A stretch of DNA of 64,000 nt from an uncultured Oscillospiraceae bacterium. GTDB taxonomy: Bacteria > Bacillota > Clostridia > Oscillospirales > Oscillospiraceae. The stretch is taken from positions 153-64,152 of the forward strand of contig CALXDD010000012.1 in assembly GCA_944386985.1 (NCBI GenBank). The letters run 5' to 3'. The position numbers and the translations under genes were made by a program. The notes beneath the pieces were generated by a model. That model saw only the letters and a program-made list of their open reading frames with translations. It searched no databases and had not been told where the DNA came from. Positions 48,850-59,122 of this stretch are shown in pieces. The first letter of the stretch is position 1. Each line of letters opens with the position of its first letter.

Positions 48850-49515
48850 TTACCAGCAATAACCATATTGGGGGTCAGACAGCACCGCCTGTGCATATTG
48901 AATATCCTTCGGCGTGTCAATTTCCAAACGCTCCACAAGGCACGCCGGAAGCGGCAAAAAATGTTCCAGCTGTTGATAGACATATGTATTTTTATCTGCC
49001 AGCAGCTTGGAGTGTACAACAGCAATATTGGACCACTCATATTCACTTCTGGCCGTTCGGGAGAAGGAGTGAATACAGTGATTTTGGTCCAGGTGAACAA
49101 AGACCGCGTCCTCACTGTTCACCGGAGCGATTCCTATCACCGTCTCTCCCTGTGCATAGTCCAGGAAAGCAGACAGGCTCTCCCGCTGCGGAATAATATC
49201 CCCGTCCAGCAGAAGAAACGGCTCATCCAGATCTTTGACGCCCAGATAGTAGCTTTGCAGCGTGTTGGTCGTGGCGTAATCCCGGTTGACAACGATCTCA
49301 ATGTCAGGCCGCAGCGCCTTTGCGGCGGCGGCGGCTTCTTCCCCATGGTAGCCCACAACAATGCGTACATGGGGGAATTCACGCAGCAATTCCAACTGGT
49401 AGGAGAGGATACTGCGTCCGTTGACCTCAACAAGGGCTTTAGGAATGCCGCGCTGCAGTCTGCTCCCCATTCCCGCGGCTGCAATGACCGCATATCGAAC
49501 GGAGTCTTTCATCAC
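48850..49515 (-). CDS. Nucleotidyltransferase (LicC/cytidylyltransferase-like)
   Basis: 221 aa. The N-terminal AVIAAAGMGSRL...PKALV is an NTP-transferase signature. The start overlaps the methyltransferase stop (GTG at 49515 or ATG at 49512). Confidence 0.85.
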   Translation of the reverse strand: MMKDSVRYAVIAAAGMGSRLQRGIPKALVEVNGRSILSYQLELLREFPHVRIVVGYHGEEAAAAAKALRPDIEIVVNRDYATTNTLQSYYLGVKDLDEPFLLLDGDIIPQRESLSAFLDYAQGETVIGIAPVNSEDAVFVHLDQNHCIHSFSRTARSEYEWSNIAVVHSKLLADKNTYVYQQLEHFLPLPACLVERLEIDTPKDIQYAQAVLSDPQYGYCW

Positions 49516-50258
49516 TTCATCCCCAAATTCTTTCTTAGAATAAAATAGAATTGTGCCGTTTCCTTGCGGTTATTGAGGGCGGCATTGTCAAACATCGGAC
49601 CATGCTCACAGAGGGTAAAGGCCGGCGCATTTTCGGTAAGCATGGCCAGATATTCCTCCTTGGTCCGGTAAATGGTATTGTACTCATGCTGCAGCTCCTC
49701 GGAGTAGAACTCCTTCAGGGTAAGCCGGTCAGACAGGCCCATCGGCTCACGCAGGTATACAACCGCATGGTCCTGCGTCAGCCCGTCCAGCGCTTGAAAA
49801 ACTTGTTTGACATCTCTGTCATTCAAATACATCATGACGCCGGAAATAATGACGTGCGTGGCCGGAGGAATCTGATTTTTGTGATAAAATTCTTCAATGT
49901 GGGGGGCTGAAACACATGCAAACGTAAAATTTGATTTCTTATTCCTCTGCTTTGAAATGCTTATGAGTTCTTCTGAAAAATCGCATCCCAAATAGGCGTC
50001 TATTTCCTGTGAAATGGCATCTGCCCAGCGCCCTACGCCACAGCCAATATCCAAAACGCGGGAATGGCTGTCAAGCTGGAGCAACGGCAGGATCTTTGCG
50101 ATTTCGATCTGATTTCTCTCTTCGGCAATCTCCGGATGATTGTCCTGATACATAGTGGAGATGTACGGATGCTCAGGATCATATTTTTTCGCTCTGTCCG
50201 CATAGAAGACCTTCGTCTTTTCATATGCAATCTCTACCTGTTCACCAACAATTCTCAT
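49512..50258 (-). CDS. Class I SAM-dependent methyltransferase
   Basis: 248 aa. Motif I VLDIGCGVGRWA. Confidence 0.9.
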   Translation of the reverse strand: MRIVGEQVEIAYEKTKVFYADRAKKYDPEHPYISTMYQDNHPEIAEERNQIEIAKILPLLQLDSHSRVLDIGCGVGRWADAISQEIDAYLGCDFSEELISISKQRNKKSNFTFACVSAPHIEEFYHKNQIPPATHVIISGVMMYLNDRDVKQVFQALDGLTQDHAVVYLREPMGLSDRLTLKEFYSEELQHEYNTIYRTKEEYLAMLTENAPAFTLCEHGPMFDNAALNNRKETAQFYFILRKNLGMK

Positions 50259-50315
50259 GCAAGCAATTCCTTTTCATTTTTGTAAAACCACTCTCATCCG
50301 CCATATGCGGCCGGA

Positions 50316-51758
50316 TCAAAGGCACTCCTCAAAAAGCGCTTCCCAGAGATGATCGCAGATCCGTTCCGCCGCCCTTCCATCCGCCAGCGGAAGGTATTGG
50401 GCACGCACCTCTGCCCGGATGGCGCGATTGGGATCTTCTCCCCTCCTCACGCGCTCCAAAAAGGCAATGATCCCCTCGCAGTCTGTCGCCTGCTCCATCC
50501 AGTGGTTGCTCACCATTTGTTCCTCAGACGTTTTCACTGCCAAAGTCTTTCCAGGAATCTGGACCCAGAGCAGCGGCTTGTCCAACAGCAGATACTGGAT
50601 CATCATGGAGCTGAAATCCGAGACCTGGCCATGGGAACAGACAAAGGAGGGGCCGTATTCCGGTTCTGTGTCCAGCACCAGATTGCTGCCGGCGCGCACC
50701 GTGTCCATCATACGTTCCAGCTTGCGGTACTGCTCCGGCTCATGGAGCTTCATCACTGCTTCCGACATGGGGTGCGGCCGCCAAATCAGCGCGTACTCCT
50801 GATGCGCAGCAAACCAGGGGAGCATCTGGTCCAGCAAATCCAGGGAGGAAGCATTGCCATCAAACCAGGTGTTCCAGAGAATGACTGTCCGCCCCTCCAC
50901 CTTCGGCTGCCATGCCTGAGGAATCCCACAGGGATTTTGCTTCAAATGAACCGCATAGTCCATTTTGGGGATTCCGGTCACCATCAGGTTTTCGCCGTGG
51001 CGCTGGTTGTACCGCGCGAAATAATTGGCAAAACGCGGGGATGAGCCGGCAATGCGCCAGGCATAGGTGTGGATGGGCATGTTGCACAGGGTCACCCTGG
51101 AATCCGAATACATCATATGGGGGATAAAATAGGGCAGATACACCAGACGCGTATATTTTGCAATATTTTCCGCCCAGAATTCCGGCGTGGTGACGCTCTC
51201 ATAGGGCTGGCAGGTGAACGCCAGCTCCGGGCAGTCCTGCTCGGGATTGTACTCCCAGTAGTTCTGAAAGGGAATTCCCATCCCGGTCAAATAGTCCTCA
51301 TAAATGAGCTCCACCTCGGTCTTCCCATCGATCTCCCTGGCCCGGAAAATAGGGGTCAGGACTACCATCGGGTCAAAGCGGGGATCCTGCCGCATGGTCT
51401 GATAGACCGAGTCCATGGAATCCCACTTGCCCCCCAGCTCCGCAAAGAAGACCGCCCGGACCTGAACGGAGATATCGTCCCGCATAGAGCGGCGCAGATG
51501 CTCCAGCCGCTCGGCCACATCATCCGGCAGCGGCAGACGCCATTGGGTTTGCACCTGCTCCAGCAGATCCATCGGCGTTGTGTTTTTCCAGTCGGGCTGC
51601 GCTTGACGCAGAATCGTTTCAATCTGCCCAAACATCTGCGCACCACTTTGAATCAAGTCTTGACACAATTCTGAATTGCCGCTGCTGTGAATATACTCAG
51701 CGGCTTCCGTCAGTGTGCGGCACACTTCATCCAGTTGTACCAGTCTTGAAAAGCGCAT
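50316..51758 (-). CDS. CDP-glycerol glycerophosphotransferase (TagB/TagF) family protein
   Basis: 480 aa. TagF-like C-terminal half (ALIWRPHPMSE...SDFSSMMIQYLLLDKP). Confidence 0.85.
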   Translation of the reverse strand: MRFSRLVQLDEVCRTLTEAAEYIHSSGNSELCQDLIQSGAQMFGQIETILRQAQPDWKNTTPMDLLEQVQTQWRLPLPDDVAERLEHLRRSMRDDISVQVRAVFFAELGGKWDSMDSVYQTMRQDPRFDPMVVLTPIFRAREIDGKTEVELIYEDYLTGMGIPFQNYWEYNPEQDCPELAFTCQPYESVTTPEFWAENIAKYTRLVYLPYFIPHMMYSDSRVTLCNMPIHTYAWRIAGSSPRFANYFARYNQRHGENLMVTGIPKMDYAVHLKQNPCGIPQAWQPKVEGRTVILWNTWFDGNASSLDLLDQMLPWFAAHQEYALIWRPHPMSEAVMKLHEPEQYRKLERMMDTVRAGSNLVLDTEPEYGPSFVCSHGQVSDFSSMMIQYLLLDKPLLWVQIPGKTLAVKTSEEQMVSNHWMEQATDCEGIIAFLERVRRGEDPNRAIRAEVRAQYLPLADGRAAERICDHLWEALFEECL

Positions 51759-51771
51759 ACTCTCTCCCTCT

Positions 51772-52965
51772 CTATTTCCCGCAGGTTTCGATCAATTCTT
51801 TTAGAATGGCCGTGGTCTTTTTCGCGCCTGATGGGCTCAAATGATCCTGGTCAATGTAATCTACAGGCTGAAGCAGGCTGACCTCATGGAAGTCCAGAAA
51901 ATGGTACTCCCCTTCTACTGCGTCCAGCGCTGCAAAATAGTCCTCTTTCAACCTGGGGTCCAAATGGCGCAGATAGTACTCAGTCTGCGGCATGCACAAA
52001 ATGTAAACATTGATTTTTTTCTCATTGCAGTATGAGACAAAATCCTTCAAAACGGCGCTGTTTTCCCGGTAACTCTCCACATGACGCAGCAGTTTGTTAT
52101 GGTCCCGGCACCGAGCCTGGGCAAAGACGTCTTTCACAGATGGCGGAAGCATTTTCCAGGCAAACTCGCCGGGAGTCCTCTGATCTGACAGCTCCCGCAA
52201 GCAGCGGTTGCATATCCTCCATCCATCGGTACTGCTGAAAGCGAAGCTCCGTGTTATTTTCACGGACTCCCCGCCCATCTGCTCATAAAACTGCCTGCAA
52301 TAGTGCTCCAATACCCGATGCTCGTCCAAAAAAGAGAGTTCCTCCAAAAGCATCCTATCCGGCGCCGCAGCATCCGAAATACCGGCGTGGTGCGCATCCT
52401 TTAAAACAGGGTAGTAGGTATCCCGGATCAGTCCTCTGGCATAGGCGCTGTCCGCCCGGGAGATATCGGAATAAAACCAGTAGTAGCCGCTGGCCAGAAC
52501 GATGTGGCGGAGGTTGGGGTTGCGCCGGATCACCGTTTCGGCCAGTTTGCAGGTATAATAGATGTCCTGGGCGTCCAGACCCAAATTTACACAGGAGGCT
52601 CCCAGCCCCGGCGCCCACAGGCCGTATTTGGCATAGGAGGAACCCAGAATCACCGTGTCGGTGGAGGGCCTGCTTGCTTTTTCCAGGGCATACTCCAAAT
52701 AGTACTGCTCCGCTTCACAGTAGGCCGTCCAGGAGATTTCCTGAAGATAGGCGTCCAGAGTATCCCAGCAAAGGATCGGCGGATTCTTTTCAATCTCCAC
52801 AAAAGGCAGACGTTTTATGTCGGCTTTGGTGGGAATGACAAGGAGAGAGACGTCGTCCGGGACCACAGCTTCTCTCGGGAGGCTTGTCAGCTGCACTCCC
52901 TCGGCCATCATTTGCTTGAGAAGCTCAAAAGTCTCATCATCCAAGAATTTGCAATATATCTGCAC
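51772..52965 (-). CDS. Uncharacterised protein with SGNH/DltD-like features
   Basis: 397 aa. VILGSSYAKYG (a possible nucleophile Ser block) and a C-terminal DQDHLS (DxxH-like block). Assignment is tentative. Confidence 0.7.
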   Translation of the reverse strand: MQIYCKFLDDETFELLKQMMAEGVQLTSLPREAVVPDDVSLLVIPTKADIKRLPFVEIEKNPPILCWDTLDAYLQEISWTAYCEAEQYYLEYALEKASRPSTDTVILGSSYAKYGLWAPGLGASCVNLGLDAQDIYYTCKLAETVIRRNPNLRHIVLASGYYWFYSDISRADSAYARGLIRDTYYPVLKDAHHAGISDAAAPDRMLLEELSFLDEHRVLEHYCRQFYEQMGGESVKITRSFAFSSTDGWRICNRCLRELSDQRTPGEFAWKMLPPSVKDVFAQARCRDHNKLLRHVESYRENSAVLKDFVSYCNEKKINVYILCMPQTEYYLRHLDPRLKEDYFAALDAVEGEYHFLDFHEVSLLQPVDYIDQDHLSPSGAKKTTAILKELIETCGK

Positions 52966-53051
52966 GGTTTCACCTAATTTCTATTTCAAGATACGGTCCC
53001 ACTCTTGTCTGACTGCCAGCAATAAAAGGTCTGCTTAAAATCTGAGTTCTA

Positions 53052-55190
53052 TCAGAGCTCAACATCCTCAATCAAATAGGCTACCTTCTGATAGGCCGCA
53101 CTTTGCTTCAACGCCGCTACCGCAGGGTCGTTAGAGGGGTATTGCACCAAAATGGCGCGGACATTTTTTGCCAATGCCAAAAGTTCAGGCGACACTTGTT
53201 GCTGCATCTCTTTTTTTTCGTACTCCACCAAAAATGTCACAAAAGCTTTCATTTGAGGAGCAGCGCGAAGGGCCGAACGAAGGGAACGAATATACGCAGC
53301 CTTGTCTCCTTGTATCTGTAACGAACGAGCTGTCAGATAGATTAACGAAAACTTGTCGATTTCGTTGAGCGCACAGCAGGCACCTTGACAAGCCAGCACT
53401 TCCGGAGCGTAACAGTGGTTCAGAAAGTTCTCTGCCGTATTCGAATAAGCTTCACTTAGCAAAAGAGCGGTCTCTGAGTCTGAAAAATTCTTTTTTTGCA
53501 TCAGCGCTGCCGCCAGCATCCAATAGAGCATCTGAATCTGGGACAGAGAATCAAGGTCAATTTTCTCCTTTTGCGAGAGGATCAGTGAAGCAAAATCTTC
53601 ACACATTTCCGCCAATGTCAGGGCGGTTGTCTGCAGCCATTTTACGCTCTGTTGCGCCATACTGTCTGGGAATATGGCCCCATATTTCAATGCATGGGCC
53701 AACGCCTGGGGCGGAAATGCATCCCAGTCCTCTACCTCAGACAAAAACTTACTAATCTCTTTATCATCAGAAGCCGCCATTACTTTTGCCGCCAGCCCGA
53801 AGGAGCCCGGTGACATCAATAAAATCCGCCATGCTTCTTCCGGCTCATCCGCTGATTCCGCCTTTTTGCTTGAGAATAGCACCTGACAAATTGCCTGGAA
53901 AGCATCGCGCTGCCTTTTTTCCCACGCAGAAACCTCTGCATTCATATAGTTCGCGTCGATTGTATGCACCATCTGTGCCATAAGCTCCTGTGCATTAGGG
54001 TTGTCTTTGTGCAGAATAAGCGCTTTGACCCAGTCCTGAATACTTTCTCCCGGTACTTGATGAATAGGCCAGTCAGCCAGCATGTCCAGCGACTTTTTTG
54101 ATTTTCCTATTTTCTCCAGGGCAATCGAAGCAATGGCTTTCACCTTAAAGCTGTGTGTAATATCTGCCGCACCCAAAACGCTGGTTGCCGACTCTAAAAC
54201 GGGCACGTCCTTTTTCTGATATTGCGTAAACGTCCGCAGATACTTTTTGGTCAATTCCGGCAGCCTGTCATAGTGTTTGCGCTCATATTCCAGCAAAATC
54301 TCGGCAAATGTTGTATCCAGTTTGGTCGCTATGTGGGTAGGATAATGTTCTTTACTCCACCGAATCCACTCCTCTGCCTGGGGCAATTGCAGCACTGTCC
54401 CAAATAGGGCGCAGTGGGCAGCAAGACCGGGTGCGCTGACACTTTGAAGGACATTCTGATCCGCATGCTGCAATACCTGAGCACTCTGTACCACATACGC
54501 AGCCCGCCTGTTGGGAAATCTGCTGGAGGATTCTATACACTGGCCCAAACGGGTCAAGTCATCTGGGTGCTGCTCCAGTTCCTTATCCAGCAAGTCCAGA
54601 TTGCGCCTTGCCTTGGCCTCCTGGGCTTCAGGCGACTCCAATGCATAGCCGTCATGGTGCAGAATGATTCCCGGCAAACATCCTATCAGCTCCGCAGTAA
54701 GCTGGCGTCCGTTTTTGCTGAAAACCTCATGAATGGTTCCCCTATAACGAATGCCAATCCCCAGCCGCGCCATTCTCAATACCAAAAAATCGGAGCATAC
54801 GCCCTCCTGCATCTCAGGAGTCAGGTAATTGCGCACTGTAATAAGGCAGGTATCCGGCCAGCTGGATTCCGGTTCACAAAACAGGCATCGCAGTTCATCA
54901 ATATTGGGGTCCAAATATTCGTCGGCATCTATGGCTAAATACCATTTTCCGCTACAGCGCTCCATTACAGCATTTCGCGCTGCGGAAAAGTCGTTGACCC
55001 ACGGAAAATCAAACAAAATATCCGCATACTGTTCCGCTATCTCCCGGGTACCATCCGTGGAACCGGTATCGGCAATTACCAGTTCACAAGAAATGGCCTT
55101 CCGTAAGGGCTGAAGAGCTTTCATGCATTTTTCAATGCATCGAATCTCATTTTTTACAATCATGCCAATGGAGAGGACAGGGGATTCCAT
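53052..55190 (-). CDS. Family-2 glycosyltransferase with a long helical (TPR-like) C-terminal region; candidate flagellin glycosyltransferase
   Basis: 712 aa. N-terminal GT2 motifs LSIGMIVKNE..., ADTGSTDGT, DADE. First gene downstream of the flagellin. Confidence 0.85.
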   Translation of the reverse strand: MESPVLSIGMIVKNEIRCIEKCMKALQPLRKAISCELVIADTGSTDGTREIAEQYADILFDFPWVNDFSAARNAVMERCSGKWYLAIDADEYLDPNIDELRCLFCEPESSWPDTCLITVRNYLTPEMQEGVCSDFLVLRMARLGIGIRYRGTIHEVFSKNGRQLTAELIGCLPGIILHHDGYALESPEAQEAKARRNLDLLDKELEQHPDDLTRLGQCIESSSRFPNRRAAYVVQSAQVLQHADQNVLQSVSAPGLAAHCALFGTVLQLPQAEEWIRWSKEHYPTHIATKLDTTFAEILLEYERKHYDRLPELTKKYLRTFTQYQKKDVPVLESATSVLGAADITHSFKVKAIASIALEKIGKSKKSLDMLADWPIHQVPGESIQDWVKALILHKDNPNAQELMAQMVHTIDANYMNAEVSAWEKRQRDAFQAICQVLFSSKKAESADEPEEAWRILLMSPGSFGLAAKVMAASDDKEISKFLSEVEDWDAFPPQALAHALKYGAIFPDSMAQQSVKWLQTTALTLAEMCEDFASLILSQKEKIDLDSLSQIQMLYWMLAAALMQKKNFSDSETALLLSEAYSNTAENFLNHCYAPEVLACQGACCALNEIDKFSLIYLTARSLQIQGDKAAYIRSLRSALRAAPQMKAFVTFLVEYEKKEMQQQVSPELLALAKNVRAILVQYPSNDPAVAALKQSAAYQKVAYLIEDVEL

Positions 55191-55330: not shown

Positions 55331-56143
55331 TTACTGCAGCAGCTGCAGCACACCCTGAGGCACCGCGTTGGCCTGGGCCAGCATGGCCTGGGCAGACTGG
55401 ATGAGAATATTGTTCTTGGTGTAGGCCATCATCTCTTCGGCAACGTCGGTGTCGCGGATGGTGGACTCGGCGTCCTGAATGTTCTCGGTCATGACGCCCA
55501 GGTTGTTGATGGTATGCTCCAAACGGTTCTGGACGGCGCCCAGTTTGCCACGGATGGTGGAAACCGACTTTATCGCGGCATTGATGGTGCTGATTGCAGC
55601 CTGAGCACCGGTCTGAGTGCTGATATTCAGCTTGCTGATACTCAAAGAAGAGGTGCTCAACTGACCCACAGTAACGGTGAGACGGTTTACGGCGTTGTTC
55701 GTCTCGCCGATCTGGAAGGTGATGCCGGCGGTGGTGAACATATTCTGGCCGTTAAAATTGCTGGCGCTGCCGATACGATTGATTTCTTTTAACAGAGCGG
55801 TTACCTCTTCCTGCAGGCTGTCACGGTCGGTCTTCTCATAAGTGCCGTTAGCGGACTGGGTGGCCAGCTCCACCATACGGTTGAGCATATCGTGGACCTC
55901 GGTCAGGGCGCCTTCAGCGGTCTGCACCAGGGAGATACCGTCCTTGGCGTTGTCCTGAGCCTTCTCCAGGCCGGTGATCTGAGCGCGCATCTTCTCGCTG
56001 ATGGCCAGACCGGCGGCGTCATCACCGGCGCGGTTGATCTTGTAGCCGGAGGACAGCTTCTCCAGATTCTTGCTCAGAGCGCTGGTGTTGGTGTTGTAGT
56101 TACGGTAGGCGTTCATCGCCATGATGTTGTGTTGAATCCTCAT
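55331..56143 (-). CDS. fliC: Flagellin (short, D0/D1-only type)
   Basis: 270 aa. N-terminus MRIQHNIMAMNAYRNYNTNTSALSKNLEKLSSGYKINRAGDDAAGLAISEKMR. C-terminus LAQANAVPQGVLQLLQ. The centre is Ser/Thr-rich. Confidence 0.97.
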   Translation of the reverse strand: MRIQHNIMAMNAYRNYNTNTSALSKNLEKLSSGYKINRAGDDAAGLAISEKMRAQITGLEKAQDNAKDGISLVQTAEGALTEVHDMLNRMVELATQSANGTYEKTDRDSLQEEVTALLKEINRIGSASNFNGQNMFTTAGITFQIGETNNAVNRLTVTVGQLSTSSLSISKLNISTQTGAQAAISTINAAIKSVSTIRGKLGAVQNRLEHTINNLGVMTENIQDAESTIRDTDVAEEMMAYTKNNILIQSAQAMLAQANAVPQGVLQLLQ

Positions 56144-56149
56144 TTTAAT

Positions 56150-56320
56150 TGCTTCCTTTCAATATAAAATGGCTGTTTTTAGAGGAGTGCTGCGTTGCGC
56201 CTCAATTTCCTTATTTCAGCGCATCTGGTTTGGCGCGTTCAAAGCCGGACTCCGTGGCCTTTGTCATCCGGCCTCTCCCGCACGGTTTATCTATTCCAAC
56301 CGGCTCGCGAGGCCGGATGA
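56150..56320 (-). promoter_or_regulatory. Flagellin leader and promoter region
   Basis: Minus strand reads TAAA, 13 nt, GCCGGATGA, an imperfect match to the sigma-D/sigma-28 consensus TAAA-N15-GCCGATAA. A 12-bp perfect inverted repeat TCATCCGGCCTC (56264-56275) / GAGGCCGGATGA (56309-56320) competes with the hairpin CCGGC..GCCGG (56300-56316). Two A(N)GGA motifs are present (56207-56212 and, in the SD, 56153-56157). Confidence 0.4.
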
Positions 56321-56344
56321 AATCAAAACAAAAAATAATATTAT

Positions 56345-56620
56345 GCTGAGTGGACTGCCCGGAGGCACCGGGCTTCGGGCGCGTCTCCCGTCCTCTCGGC
56401 GGGGGAGTAGCCCTCTGTTCTTCCCACCCGGCGGCTTTTGGGGGAAGCGCCAACCGAACCGGCAAACGCTTTTGCCGGTCAGGTCAGCACTCCCCGGCCG
56501 CACCCATGGGCATTCACCGGCGTCCCGACCGGCATAGCAAGGGGAAATCGGCAGGCTCAGGCGACGCCCGCCTGCTGATCAAAGGCCGCAAGGCCAAAGT
56601 CCCGGATATTCCGGGCGGTA
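56345..56620 (-). ncRNA. Candidate omega-RNA / guide-RNA scaffold of the TnpB-like gene
   Basis: About 200 nt of GC-rich, hairpin-dense sequence follows the tnpB-like stop (for example CCGGCAAA-agcg-TTTGCCGG and GCCCGG-tgcct-CCGGGC). It ends abruptly at about 56350, where AT-rich sequence begins. The assignment rests only on this position, which is where TnpB-family omega RNAs lie. Confidence 0.3.
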
Positions 56621-57723
56621 TTTTCATCGCGGTTCAGCTGCTCTCCGCAGTGGGGGCATACCCAGGTTCTGCGGCGCGCCGGCAGCTTCTCATTCACACA
56701 GCCGCAGGCGTGGCAGGTCCTGGCAGCGGGGAGATAGGGGTCTACATCGATGTACTGCTTGCCCTGCTCCTCCAGCTTGTAGCGCAGGAACTCCCGGAAC
56801 ATGCCGAAGCCGGAGTCCAGCACGTTTCCGCCCTCGAGGCGCTGGGCCATCACATTCAGGTCGGCCCCCCGCACACACACGGCGTCCCAGGCGTTGGCTA
56901 TCCGCCTGCTCTGCTGGTGCGCGAAGTCCCGGCGCTGGTTTGCGATATGCTCATACTGGAGCCGGACTTTCTGAAGCTGCTTTTCGTAGTTTCCGGAGCC
57001 CCTCTGCATCCGGGAGAGCTTGCTTTGCATCCGGGCCAGCTTCTCTCTGGCGGCCGCCATCTGCGGCGGGATCTCCGGACTGCCGCCGCTGCTGTCTACA
57101 TAGAAATGGGCCATGGAGTAATTGAGGCCCACAGTCCGCTGAGGGGTTGGGACGACAGGCTCCGGAATCTCGGTCTCATATCCGAAGGCCATGGAACAGA
57201 AATACTTTCCGGTTTTTGTCTTGGTGATGGTCACAGACCGCAGCGACCACCAGTGCAGAGGCTTCCTGTACAGCTTCACCTTGAGCAGCCCCAGCTTGGG
57301 CATCTGCAATCCCGCGCCGGTGAGGCGCAGGGACGGCCCGGTGTGATAGGGGCGGCTGTAAACGGTAAAGGAGTCCTTGCGTGCCTTCTTGGTCTTGGGC
57401 CTGGGGTACTGGAAAACCCTCGGGTTTCGGAAAAAATCCAGAAAAGCTTTGCGCAGGCTCTGGTGCACCGCACAGAGGGCCTGACTGTCCACCTCCTTGA
57501 GGAAGGGGGCGCCCTTTTTGTACCGGGCGGGGGTAGGGATATAGTGGACGTCCGTGGCCGCATAGAACTCCTGAACGTCAGAGAGCATCTGATTCCAGAG
57601 GTAGCGGCAGCAGCCAAAGGTTTTTTCCATCAGCTCCGCCTGCTCCGGCGTGGGGTAGACGGGAACCTTGAGGACGGTATATCGGACGGTTTTGGCGGGA
57701 CTCTCTTTGGGTTTGCTTGGCAT
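56557..57723 (-). CDS. tnpB: TnpB-like (IS605 OrfB family) protein with substituted RuvC catalytic residues
   Basis: Start trimmed to MPSKPKESPAKTVRY. 388 aa. OrfB hallmarks: TFGCCRYLWNQ, LKEVDSQAL, zinc ribbon CHACG..CPHCG, and RDENTARNI. RuvC-I reads VGLN (Asn201 where Asp is expected). RuvC-II reads VCVRGADLNV (no Glu). The RuvC-III Asp366 is retained. Confidence 0.9.
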   Translation of the reverse strand: MPSKPKESPAKTVRYTVLKVPVYPTPEQAELMEKTFGCCRYLWNQMLSDVQEFYAATDVHYIPTPARYKKGAPFLKEVDSQALCAVHQSLRKAFLDFFRNPRVFQYPRPKTKKARKDSFTVYSRPYHTGPSLRLTGAGLQMPKLGLLKVKLYRKPLHWWSLRSVTITKTKTGKYFCSMAFGYETEIPEPVVPTPQRTVGLNYSMAHFYVDSSGGSPEIPPQMAAAREKLARMQSKLSRMQRGSGNYEKQLQKVRLQYEHIANQRRDFAHQQSRRIANAWDAVCVRGADLNVMAQRLEGGNVLDSGFGMFREFLRYKLEEQGKQYIDVDPYLPAARTCHACGCVNEKLPARRRTWVCPHCGEQLNRDENTARNIRDFGLAAFDQQAGVA

Positions 57724-57831
57724 CTCCGTCCGCGCTCCTTTCCTTCTGCTTCGGGTCTCCGTCTCCGGCCCGCCGGCAATCACGTTCCCCCGCGTCTGAC
57801 AGGAGGCAGTCAAAAACTCATGTGCAATGGA

Positions 57832-58305
57832 TCAGGCCCCGGTCTGTTCATGGCGGGCCGTATTCTCCTGAGCGCTGCCGCTTTGGGCGGCCTCTATGGC
57901 GGCGAATCTGCCGCACAGGGCTTTCAGCTTTTCCTGTACCCCTGCGCTTCCATGCGCTGCCATCCACTCGTCCAGATGATCCGCAACCTCCGCCAGCTCC
58001 CGCAGCGTCTCTTCTCTTTCTTCCGCTGCGCTTTGGCGCTGCCGTTCACGCTCGGCTTTCTCTTCCAGCCGCTCCGCGTGACGTTTCGCGTCGTATCTGC
58101 GCCTGGCCATACTTTTCGGCCGCTTTTCCAGCAGGCCGTCCGGACGTTCGCCCGAGCGCTCGTGAACCTCGCCCCGGAGAACGGAAACCTCCCTGGGAGC
58201 CTTCACCGACACGCAAAAAGCCGAGCCGGACTGCTTGAACACCTGCACGGTGATGTCCTCCCCGATGGTGAGGTACTCGCCGGATTTCAGTTGCAGCGAG
58301 AGCAT
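57832..58305 (-). CDS. CsrA-like RNA-binding protein with a ~95-aa charged, helical C-terminal extension
   Basis: Start trimmed to MLSLQLKSGEYLTIGEDITVQVFKQSGSAFCVSVKAPREVSVLRGEVHER, which matches the CsrA pattern ML.L.R..GE...IGD.I.V.V......V.IGI.AP..V.V.R.E. Strong RBS GAAGGAGA. 157 aa versus about 70-75 aa for canonical CsrA. Confidence 0.8.
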   Translation of the reverse strand: MLSLQLKSGEYLTIGEDITVQVFKQSGSAFCVSVKAPREVSVLRGEVHERSGERPDGLLEKRPKSMARRRYDAKRHAERLEEKAERERQRQSAAEEREETLRELAEVADHLDEWMAAHGSAGVQEKLKALCGRFAAIEAAQSGSAQENTARHEQTGA

Positions 58306-58360
58306 AAAAGTCTCCTTCTCCAGCCGGGCGCTTCCCTGCGCCGTGCGGGTTTGCGCTTGT

Positions 58361-58492
58361 GTAGGTTTACAAATACACTTTTTCAAACTGCCTTCACTAT
58401 TTCTTTCGGCTGAATTTTTAGAAAATTAAGGTCTCTGACAGAATTTTTTTATTCGCCTGATCAGTTTGTAAACCTACACTTTTTCAAACTGC
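58361..58492. repeat. Inverted and direct repeat array between the recombinase and the CsrA-like gene
   Basis: Perfect 13-bp inverted repeat: GTAGGTTTACAAA (58361-58373) / TTTGTAAACCTAC (58465-58477). Perfect 18-bp direct repeat TACACTTTTTCAAACTGC at 58374-58391 and 58475-58492. Confidence 0.9.

Positions 58493-59122
<630 letters not shown>

Follow-up and report, generated by a model that had tools for sequence, protein, structure and literature searches.

A double-length CsrA paralogue linked to flagellin in a probable phase-variable cassette of Oscillospiraceae

We analysed a 64-kb window, that is, the whole stretch of 64,000 nucleotides from an uncultured Oscillospiraceae bacterium (assembly GCA_944386985.1, contig CALXDD010000012.1, positions 153 to 64,152; coordinates below count from its first letter), with the focus on one csrA gene at 57832..58305 on the minus strand. 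Judged by its sequence, the gene encodes a real CsrA-type RNA-binding protein of 157 aa, about double the usual length, as supported by Pfam, an alignment of homologues, AlphaFold2 models and the ratio of non-synonymous to synonymous substitution rates (dN/dS). We consider it likely that this CsrA is a flagellin-dedicated paralogue, which serves as the translational-repressor arm and first gene of a phase-variable hin-inverton-csrA-tldR-flagellin cassette. The locus is another member of a published system and differs from it in nothing essential, while two things are new, namely a clade-restricted helical tail on CsrA and a flagellin-linked CsrA subfamily that is wider than the TldR-bearing loci.

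Sequence features of a divergent CsrA paralogue

An earlier note on this DNA had described a CsrA-fold protein of roughly twice the normal length. A search with hidden Markov models of the CsrA family bore this out, where Pfam CsrA (PF02599) matched residues 1-50 at 49.2 bits with a model of 53 positions (cut-off 27 bits, E 5e-13). A profile of 84 homologues matched solved RsmE/CsrA structures across residues 1-51 (E 9e-9), and R44, L2, L4, A36 and P37 are invariant in these homologues, with K7 and I/V42 nearly so. The RNA-binding residues of β1 and β5, which we take to be L2, L4, R/K7, V40, V42, R44 and I/V47 in E. coli numbering, reportedly go back to work of Mercante in 2006, and L2, L4 and R44 are presumably those that matter most for RNA binding. 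The window CsrA has V40, V42, R44 and V47, and its position 6 is L, not R.

The scores for the NCBIfam CsrA equivalogs were under their cut-offs (40.0 against 73 bits for NF002469 and 34.2 against 70.1 bits for TIGR00202). Therefore, on the sequence scores, the window CsrA is a divergent paralogue and not an orthologue of the housekeeping global regulator.

The csrA ATG lies at 58305 and is preceded by a ribosome-binding site, GGAGAAGGAGAC-N4 (motif GGAGAAGGAG), and the protein begins with MLSLQLKSGEYLTIG. Considering that the MLSLQLKSGEY... N-terminus is common to 120/120 homologues among the matches listed, the start codon is assigned correctly, and the doubt in the earlier note about the start can be laid aside. 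An alternative, longer open reading frame (ORF) with a TTG start at 58386 would extend into the inverton described below.

csrA and flagellin in related loci

A scan with the family profile, taking one genome per species, gave 49 loci, mostly from Oscillospiraceae and including Flavonifractor, Oscillibacter, Dysosmobacter, Evtepia, Acutalibacter, Butyricicoccus, Agathobaculum and Neglectibacter. Counts were taken over the 44 loci with at least about 250 bp of downstream sequence, the five others being too short. A flagellin gene follows csrA in all 44, and the flagellin link of the long CsrA thus stands, with long forms present both with and without TldR, a nuclease-dead TnpB homologue. In 32/44 loci csrA is directly upstream of flagellin at a distance of 108-300 bp, in 11/44 a TldR (8) or TldR remnant (3) lies between them, and in 1/44 TldR is upstream of csrA. 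Of the 39 loci that have upstream sequence, 21 carry Hin or a Hin-like ORF upstream of csrA: in 10 it is a full-length Hin at a distance of less than 400 bp, in the other 11 a partial Hin-like ORF. Several paralogues of the subfamily occur per genome, each next to a flagellin gene. The closest genome relative is Flavonifractor sp. An306, with CsrA, TldR and Hin 69%, 83% and 89% identical, respectively.

As read from these gene orders, csrA-flagellin adjacency is the ancestral state of the CsrA subfamily, and hin-inverton-csrA-fliC is the basic unit, to which TldR is an addition in about a quarter of loci. Since hin-csrA-fliC without TldR is the commoner form, the comparison suggests that TldR was added later to an existing CsrA-based switch, by domestication and not by disruption. 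The earlier note had proposed that a TnpB-like gene was inserted into a csrA-flagellin unit. The insertion itself agrees with the ancestral adjacency, with the direct arrangement in 32/44 loci and with the TnpB-derived gene or remnant in 11/44, whereas the idea of a selfish remodelling insert does not fit TldR.

One metagenome contig (L001:1-16474, JGI 3300029305) carries hin, csrA (157 aa), fliS overlapping the csrA 3' end, tldR, a second csrA (121 aa) and a 765-aa flagellin. This cassette comes directly after genes for MobL, DUF3991-Toprim, a TraG-type coupling protein and a helix-turn-helix protein, which is the context of a conjugative element. A tblastn search of the CsrA protein against plasmid and phage collections returned no match; a mobile-element origin was rejected, although the L001 cassette is beside conjugation genes. 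Two published papers (PMC10705468, PMC13418256) call such loci chromosomal.

Linked flagellin and GGA motifs in its leader

The flagellin gene of the window at 55331..56143 (minus strand) encodes 270 aa with the D0/D1 domains only (Pfam Flagellin_N and Flagellin_C). By sequence, its leader at 56144..56223 (minus strand) has two GGA motifs, of which the first, AUAAGGAAAU (56205-56214), lies between UGCGC/GCGCA arms (56196-56223) and the second, GAAAGGAAGC, is at the Shine-Dalgarno sequence (56151-56160). Among the csrA-linked flagellin leaders, 39/44 have a hairpin with GGA in the loop, with stems that differ and compensate, together with GGA in the Shine-Dalgarno sequence, compared with about 20/44 for shuffled sequences. 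This comparative count is better evidence than the fold of a single leader.

It is possible, although we think it less probable than not, that CsrA exerts homeostatic repression in cis on the flagellin next to it, as Bacillus CsrA does on hag. The universal adjacency of csrA and flagellin in the subfamily speaks for it, and so does the linked leader with its GGA hairpin and GGA-containing Shine-Dalgarno sequence. There is also a precedent, in that csrA-hag synteny of Bacillus reportedly works by cis-type homeostatic repression (Mukherjee, 2011). On the other hand, a repressor and its own target expressed from one switchable promoter would give no obvious switch logic. Furthermore, published RNA immunoprecipitation sequencing (RIP-seq; PMC13418256) shows that the CsrA of such an Oscillibacter locus co-purifies with the 5' untranslated region of the TldR-targeted fliC at a CAAGGAUG stem-loop, and this fliC is another gene than the linked one. 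Action in cis and repression of rival flagellins are not mutually exclusive.

The csrA leader itself holds a GGA-loop hairpin, GGCGC-AGGGAA-GCGCC, at 58327..58342 (minus strand), which is present in the minimum-free-energy fold. The hairpin is kept in L016 and L026, similar ones are in L001 and L056, and the Shine-Dalgarno sequence of csrA at 58303-58321 is GGA-rich. Together, hairpin and Shine-Dalgarno sequence form a possible autoregulatory CsrA site.

Downstream of flagellin, Pfam identified genes on the minus strand at 49512..55190 for a GT2 glycosyltransferase (712 aa), a glycerophosphotransferase and a methyltransferase, together with an unannotated ORF (397 aa). GT2, FliB_C and methyltransferase genes are found at the same place in related loci. 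These genes are probably flagellin modification genes, and each flagellin allele may bring its own. Upstream of the recombinase are unrelated metabolic genes, and flagellin, CsrA, a TnpB homologue and a recombinase are each encoded only once in the window.

Promoter inverton between hin and csrA

The recombinase upstream of csrA (58493..59101, minus strand, 202 aa) is a hin-like serine DNA invertase with a Pfam Resolvase match of 103 bits, and its best solved relatives are Sin/Bin3 and the Gin DNA-invertase. A repeat search and a comparison of contigs revealed a strandless inverton of 121 bp at 58359..58479, which is made up of perfect 15-nt inverted repeats (58359-58373 and 58465-58479) and a 91-nt core between them. 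In two metagenome contigs, L014 and L015, CsrA is 99% and the recombinase 100% identical to those of the window. The core of L014 has the window orientation, while that of L015 is the exact reverse complement, with both flanks collinear. Because the L015 core is reversed within flanks that stay collinear, the csrA promoter segment undergoes site-specific inversion, and both of its orientations are observed.

Inside the inverton, a consensus pattern (TAAA-N15-GCCGATAA, at most 3 mismatches) matched a sigma-28/FliA-like promoter, TTAATTTT-N11-GCCGAAAG, at 58403..58429 on the minus strand. This predicted promoter aims at csrA in the window, which would be the ON orientation. When 35 other loci were scanned, 19 had the FliA-like motif, of which 8 have it pointing only toward csrA, 9 only away from it and 2 on both strands. 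Many related loci have comparable inverted repeats upstream of csrA, spaced by 100-125 bp.

An 18-nt direct repeat, GCAGTTTGAAAAAGTGTA on the minus strand, occurs at 58374-58391, inside the inverton by the csrA-side arm, and at 58475-58492, outside it by the hin-side arm. In the flipped state of L015, the two copies form a 46-nt palindrome directly after the hin stop codon. From its sequence, the repeat may serve as an additional half-site for the recombinase or, depending on the state, as a terminator.

In L030, L049, L054, L056, L058-L060 and L062, an ORF lies about 55-220 bp upstream of a short csrA (61-83 aa) and matches only residues ~89-189 of the window Hin at 37-48% identity. A full-length hin is often found a few hundred bp further upstream in these loci. 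The partial ORF could encode a truncated recombinase or a separate DNA-binding factor, as far as the match indicates.

TldR and its guide RNA

The gene between csrA and flagellin encodes TldR of 388 aa at 56557..57723 (minus strand), with a likely ATG at 57723, while the mechanical ORF reaches a TTG at 57813. The protein matched an NCBIfam TnpB subfamily at 229 bits and was aligned over nearly its whole length to ISDra2 TnpB (8h1j/8bf8), where D191 is replaced by N, E278 by R, and D361 is kept. Since two of the three RuvC catalytic residues are lost, the TnpB-like gene is, by alignment, a RuvC-inactivated TldR. Its ATG is 108-109 nt past the csrA stop, a start that is also annotated in L014/L015, and the 413 nt from its stop to the fliC ATG are non-coding, with tldR within 3 kb of both csrA and fliC. 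An active IS200/IS605 transposon was rejected, considering that two catalytic residues are replaced and that the gene keeps its place between csrA and fliC in different genera. The neighbouring genes showed no TnpA.

The neighbours that the earlier note had listed are in place on the same strand (recombinase at 58493..59101, TnpB-family gene at 56557..57813, flagellin at 55331..56143). Its family labels for the recombinase and the TnpB-like gene were right, and their roles can be worded more precisely as an invertase of a promoter inverton and a RuvC-dead TldR with a flagellin guide.

A guide-RNA scaffold at 56350..56537 (minus strand) is conserved downstream of tldR in 10 loci and ends with GGGCAGTCCAC. 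RNAalifold on 9/10 of these loci gave 49 pairs, 21 of them with compensatory changes. A search of Rfam for the guide RNA gave no family and only two sub-threshold microRNA matches. The scaffold end is followed by a 16-nt guide, TCAGCATAATATTATT, at 56334..56349 (minus strand), whose sequence is that of the sense strand over codons 3-8 of flagellin (I Q H N I M). Over its first 15 nt, the guide is a perfect match to the flagellin 5' ends of L019, L036 and L037, whereas the linked flagellin reads ATT CAA CAC AAC ATC ATG, with four synonymous third-codon mismatches. The csrA-linked flagellins collected begin with MRIQHN(I/V), except for one with MIIQHNI, and the variation there is almost only synonymous. 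As the guide mismatches the linked gene and matches other alleles, the cassette appears, from these sequences, to be made for shutting off other flagellin alleles and leaving its own untouched.

The guide begins 6 nt deeper in the flagellin ORF in the window, L016 and L026 (GTCCAC|TCAGCATAAT) compared with the clade members L031, L033, L035 and L036 (GTCCAC|GCGTATTCAGCATAAT). The sequence next to the target, presumably the register of the target-adjacent motif, must therefore differ between the two groups. Directly after the guide and a T-run, a hairpin, CCGGC-N6-GCCGG, followed by TTGGAATAG is located at 56291-56316 (minus strand), and its position is conserved across TldR loci. By position and sequence, this hairpin might mark the 3' boundary of the guide RNA or be part of the flagellin promoter.

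Taken together with the inverton, these results bear on whether the window CsrA is a housekeeping global CsrA, next to which a TnpB gene and a recombinase landed as unrelated mobile DNA. That is very improbable. The Pfam CsrA match would fit it, and TnpB and serine recombinases are common in mobile elements, but the equivalog scores are under the cut-offs and several paralogues of the subfamily are found in a single genome, each by a flagellin gene. Moreover, the RuvC site of the TnpB homologue is dead and its guide is directed at flagellin, the recombinase flips the adjoining promoter, and the gene order recurs across genera.

C-terminal extension of CsrA

The CsrA domain (residues 1-50, 58156-58305) is followed by a conserved linker of the form ERxGxRPDGLxxKRPKSxxxR (residues 51-66, 58108-58155), an E/R/K-rich helix (residues 67-98, 58012-58107), two amphipathic heptad helices with a conserved AHG turn between them (residues 99-140, 57886-58011) and a variable tail end (residues 141-157). 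An extension rich in E, R and A with helical character had been noticed before, and both parts of that description agree with our data, where residues 51-157 (107 aa) contain 53% E+R+A+K and are helical in AlphaFold2 models. The linker has the consensus ERxGxRPDGLxxKRPKSPSER, in which R54, P55, G57, L58 and P63 are nearly invariant, and it is present in the 87-aa forms too. While the E/R/K-rich stretch varies in length among homologues, hydrophobic positions are conserved at a/d heptad spacing (100/101, 104, 107, 111 and 114 in one helix segment; 123, 127, 130, 134 and 137 in the other).

In the AlphaFold2 model of the full-length monomer, the predicted local distance difference test (pLDDT) was 72 and the extension formed one long helix, whereas the CsrA domain was of low confidence (pLDDT 45-61), as expected for a monomer model because CsrA is a swapped dimer. 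When the tail was modeled alone, the pLDDT was 87.6, with helices at 66-118 and 121-154. The tail is most likely, on these models, a coiled coil or four-helix bundle.

The extension is kept as an ORF in 84 homologues down to about 40% identity, and indels in it are in-frame. Against Flavonifractor sp. An306, the dN/dS values of the CsrA domain, the linker and the helices were 0.19, 0.09 and 0.39, respectively. Because the reading frame is conserved in relatives and dN/dS is below 1, the tail is translated and under purifying selection and is not read-through. Short relatives of 61-87 aa, a metagenomic 107-aa form (P0007) and a 104-aa form in L026 could be taken to mean that the extension is an artefact, which would come from a misplaced start codon, from translation through a stop that was lost or from a fusion to the next ORF. 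We regard this as extremely improbable, given the frame and the dN/dS, the helices predicted with high confidence, and a uniform N-terminus preceded by a ribosome-binding site.

Searching for relatives of the tail, we found nothing in Pfam but sub-threshold coiled-coil noise, no significant match past residue 51 with the sequence profile of the CsrA family in the PDB, and no known fold with Foldseek of the tail model against the PDB (best E 9.3). Among 1.84 billion representative proteins, the tail profile had 24 matches, which are attached to CsrA or are fragments thereof, except for 3 spurious long coiled coils. A module common to other proteins was therefore rejected. By these searches, the tail, which most members of the subfamily have, is restricted to the clade and unrelated to FliW, FliS or any recognisable module. 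A link between the tail and TldR was also rejected, as long CsrA forms occur with and without TldR.

The length of CsrA in the 44 genome loci ranges from 61 to 209 aa with a median of 121, at least 100 aa in 26 and at most 90 aa in 17, and reaches 217 aa in loci too short for the 44-locus survey. P0007 is near-identical to the window CsrA apart from a clean internal deletion of residues ~93-142. The deletion drops both amphipathic helices and keeps the linker and the tail end; P0007 is thus a natural tail-less allele and a possible comparison. The form in L026, by comparison, is truncated to 104 aa.

The earlier note had raised the extension as a built-in partner or antagonist in place of FliW. 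In this form, the claim found no support, for the tail has no similarity to FliW or FliS and is missing from cassettes with a CsrA of 61-87 aa. A sensor or antagonist that works without FliW seems to us unlikely; it would bind the cognate flagellin, the export chaperone or the export apparatus, and thereby release the RNA-binding domain from or to mRNA. FliW is reportedly docked on the C-terminal region of CsrA in Bacillus (Altegoer, 2016), which is in favour of a sensor, as are the purifying selection on the tail, the lack of a visible fliW in the cassettes or annotated neighbours, and a cassette type with fliS overlapping the 3' end of the long csrA. However, the tail resembles no family, many cassettes of the same layout have a 61-87-aa CsrA without the helices, and the helices conserve only heptad hydrophobic positions, while flagellin termini are nearly invariant. 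Conservation of heptad positions only would rather be expected of a structural coiled coil than of a surface that binds flagellin specifically.

Discussion

The gene order, the inverton in both states, the hairpins of the flagellin leaders and the guide RNA lead us to the cassette proposed at the outset, for which we infer the mRNAs bound by the window CsrA, the activity of the promoter and the role of the tail. In the window orientation, the sigma-28-type promoter of the inverton would read into csrA, tldR and the guide RNA. CsrA, as a swapped dimer, would bind the GGA motifs in flagellin leaders, at the GGA-loop hairpin and the Shine-Dalgarno sequence, and block translation, while TldR with its guide RNA would bind the first codons of rival flagellin genes and block their transcription. 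The linked flagellin would escape TldR through its four synonymous mismatches. In the tail, the helices would pair as a coiled coil or assemble into a four-helix bundle, so that the two C-termini of the dimer are held together or separate dimers are connected. The tail would thereby tune how RNA is bound or how partners dock, and the basic linker would add to the RNA-binding face.

Several observations weigh against this proposal. The NCBIfam scores are far under the equivalog cut-offs given above, and the window CsrA may, going by its divergence, recognise RNA with another specificity than canonical CsrA does. Folded as a single sequence, the window flagellin leader does not surpass its shuffled versions (z 0.6). 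Both GGA motifs are held by the leader of the linked flagellin itself, which is hard to reconcile with CsrA sparing it; the target of CsrA may be the linked flagellin instead of the rivals, or it may be both. The window has no second flagellin as a target for the guide, and two metagenome pattern scans for a flagellin start matching the guide found none, with patterns that were too specific (fixed leader / AGG codon). Many cassettes of the same architecture carry a CsrA of 61-87 aa without the helices, which means that the tail is not essential to the module, and the dimeric coiled coil is a best guess from monomer predictions and heptad spacing.

In function, the cassette parallels the hin-fljBA system of Salmonella. 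Both have an invertase of the Hin type, and the promoter that it flips drives a flagellin along with a repressor of the alternative flagellin. In Salmonella this repressor is FljA, whose site of action is the leader of the fliC mRNA, and the window CsrA would take its role. In contrast with the Salmonella system, the repressor of the window has the CsrA fold, is not a FljA homologue and sits upstream of flagellin; there is a second, RNA-guided transcriptional repressor, and the promoter is sigma-28-like. The same parallel is drawn in PMC13418256.

With the FliW-CsrA-flagellin switch of Bacillus, Campylobacter and Clostridioides, the cassette shares a csrA directly upstream of flagellin, as in most surveyed loci, and two GGA sites in the leader, one of them at the Shine-Dalgarno sequence. 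It differs in that the cassette is without fliW, CsrA is under the equivalog cut-offs, and the subfamily has multiple paralogues per genome and phase-variable expression. No FliW domain was found among the 14 Pfam-scanned genes of the window or among the genes of L001-L013 that were annotated with Pfam, a check that did not extend to the other genes of the window or to the genome as a whole. In sequence, the C-terminal region has no relation to the tail with which Bacillus CsrA binds FliW, and when aligned to the Geobacillus CsrA in complex with FliW (5dmb_D), the family profile covers residues 7-47 only.

Extra CsrA-fold paralogues with specialised regulons are also known from CsrT, encoded by an integrative and conjugative element of Legionella, and from RsmN/RsmF of Pseudomonas. 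Some of these are on mobile elements, to which the L001 cassette by conjugation genes can be compared. To our knowledge, none of them carries a helical C-terminal extension of about 100 residues or has a tie to flagellin genes.

A Clostridial group of TldRs associated with flagellin genes and csrA was described by Wiegand et al. in a 2023 preprint (PMC10705468; Nature 2024). A later study, 'Temperate phages enhance bacterial host fitness via RNA-guided flagellar remodeling' (PMC13418256, Nat Microbiol 2026), reports that TldRs bind inside alternative fliC ORFs via guide RNAs, with guide-dependent DNA binding shown, that most loci have hin upstream, and that Flavonifractor plautii loci undergo ~120-bp inversions with a FliA-dependent promoter. 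The published csrA-TldR loci have the same order as the window, from hin, a ~120-bp inversion with FliA promoter, csrA and a RuvC-mutated tldR to the guide RNA and fliC. They also share a guide aimed inside flagellin ORFs and a CsrA motif in a stem-loop of the flagellin leader, and the taxa match (Flavonifractor, Oscillibacter and other Oscillospiraceae). Whereas the published group is defined through TldR, the CsrA subfamily described here is broader, with about three quarters of the flagellin-linked loci lacking TldR. In the available excerpts of both papers, the double length of CsrA, its C-terminal helices and FliW are not mentioned. The window adds an independent observation of the inverton in both states.

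A further role of the tail can be considered, where it would make the CsrA of each cassette a FliW-independent partner switch that binds the cognate flagellin or chaperone, or that enforces paralogue-specific dimers. We hold this idea to be doubtful. If it were true, CsrA paralogues in one cell could tell their own flagellin mRNA from those of rivals, which would account for the escape of the linked flagellin from the repressor of its own cassette.

Taken all together, the locus would be a clear example of three controls stacked on flagellin in gut Oscillospiraceae, namely DNA inversion, RNA-guided transcriptional repression and CsrA-type translational repression. Since flagellins are major TLR5 ligands and phage receptors, the choice of flagellin affects host immunity and phage susceptibility, and the tail offers a handle on how one CsrA paralogue may separate its own flagellin mRNA from those of its rivals.

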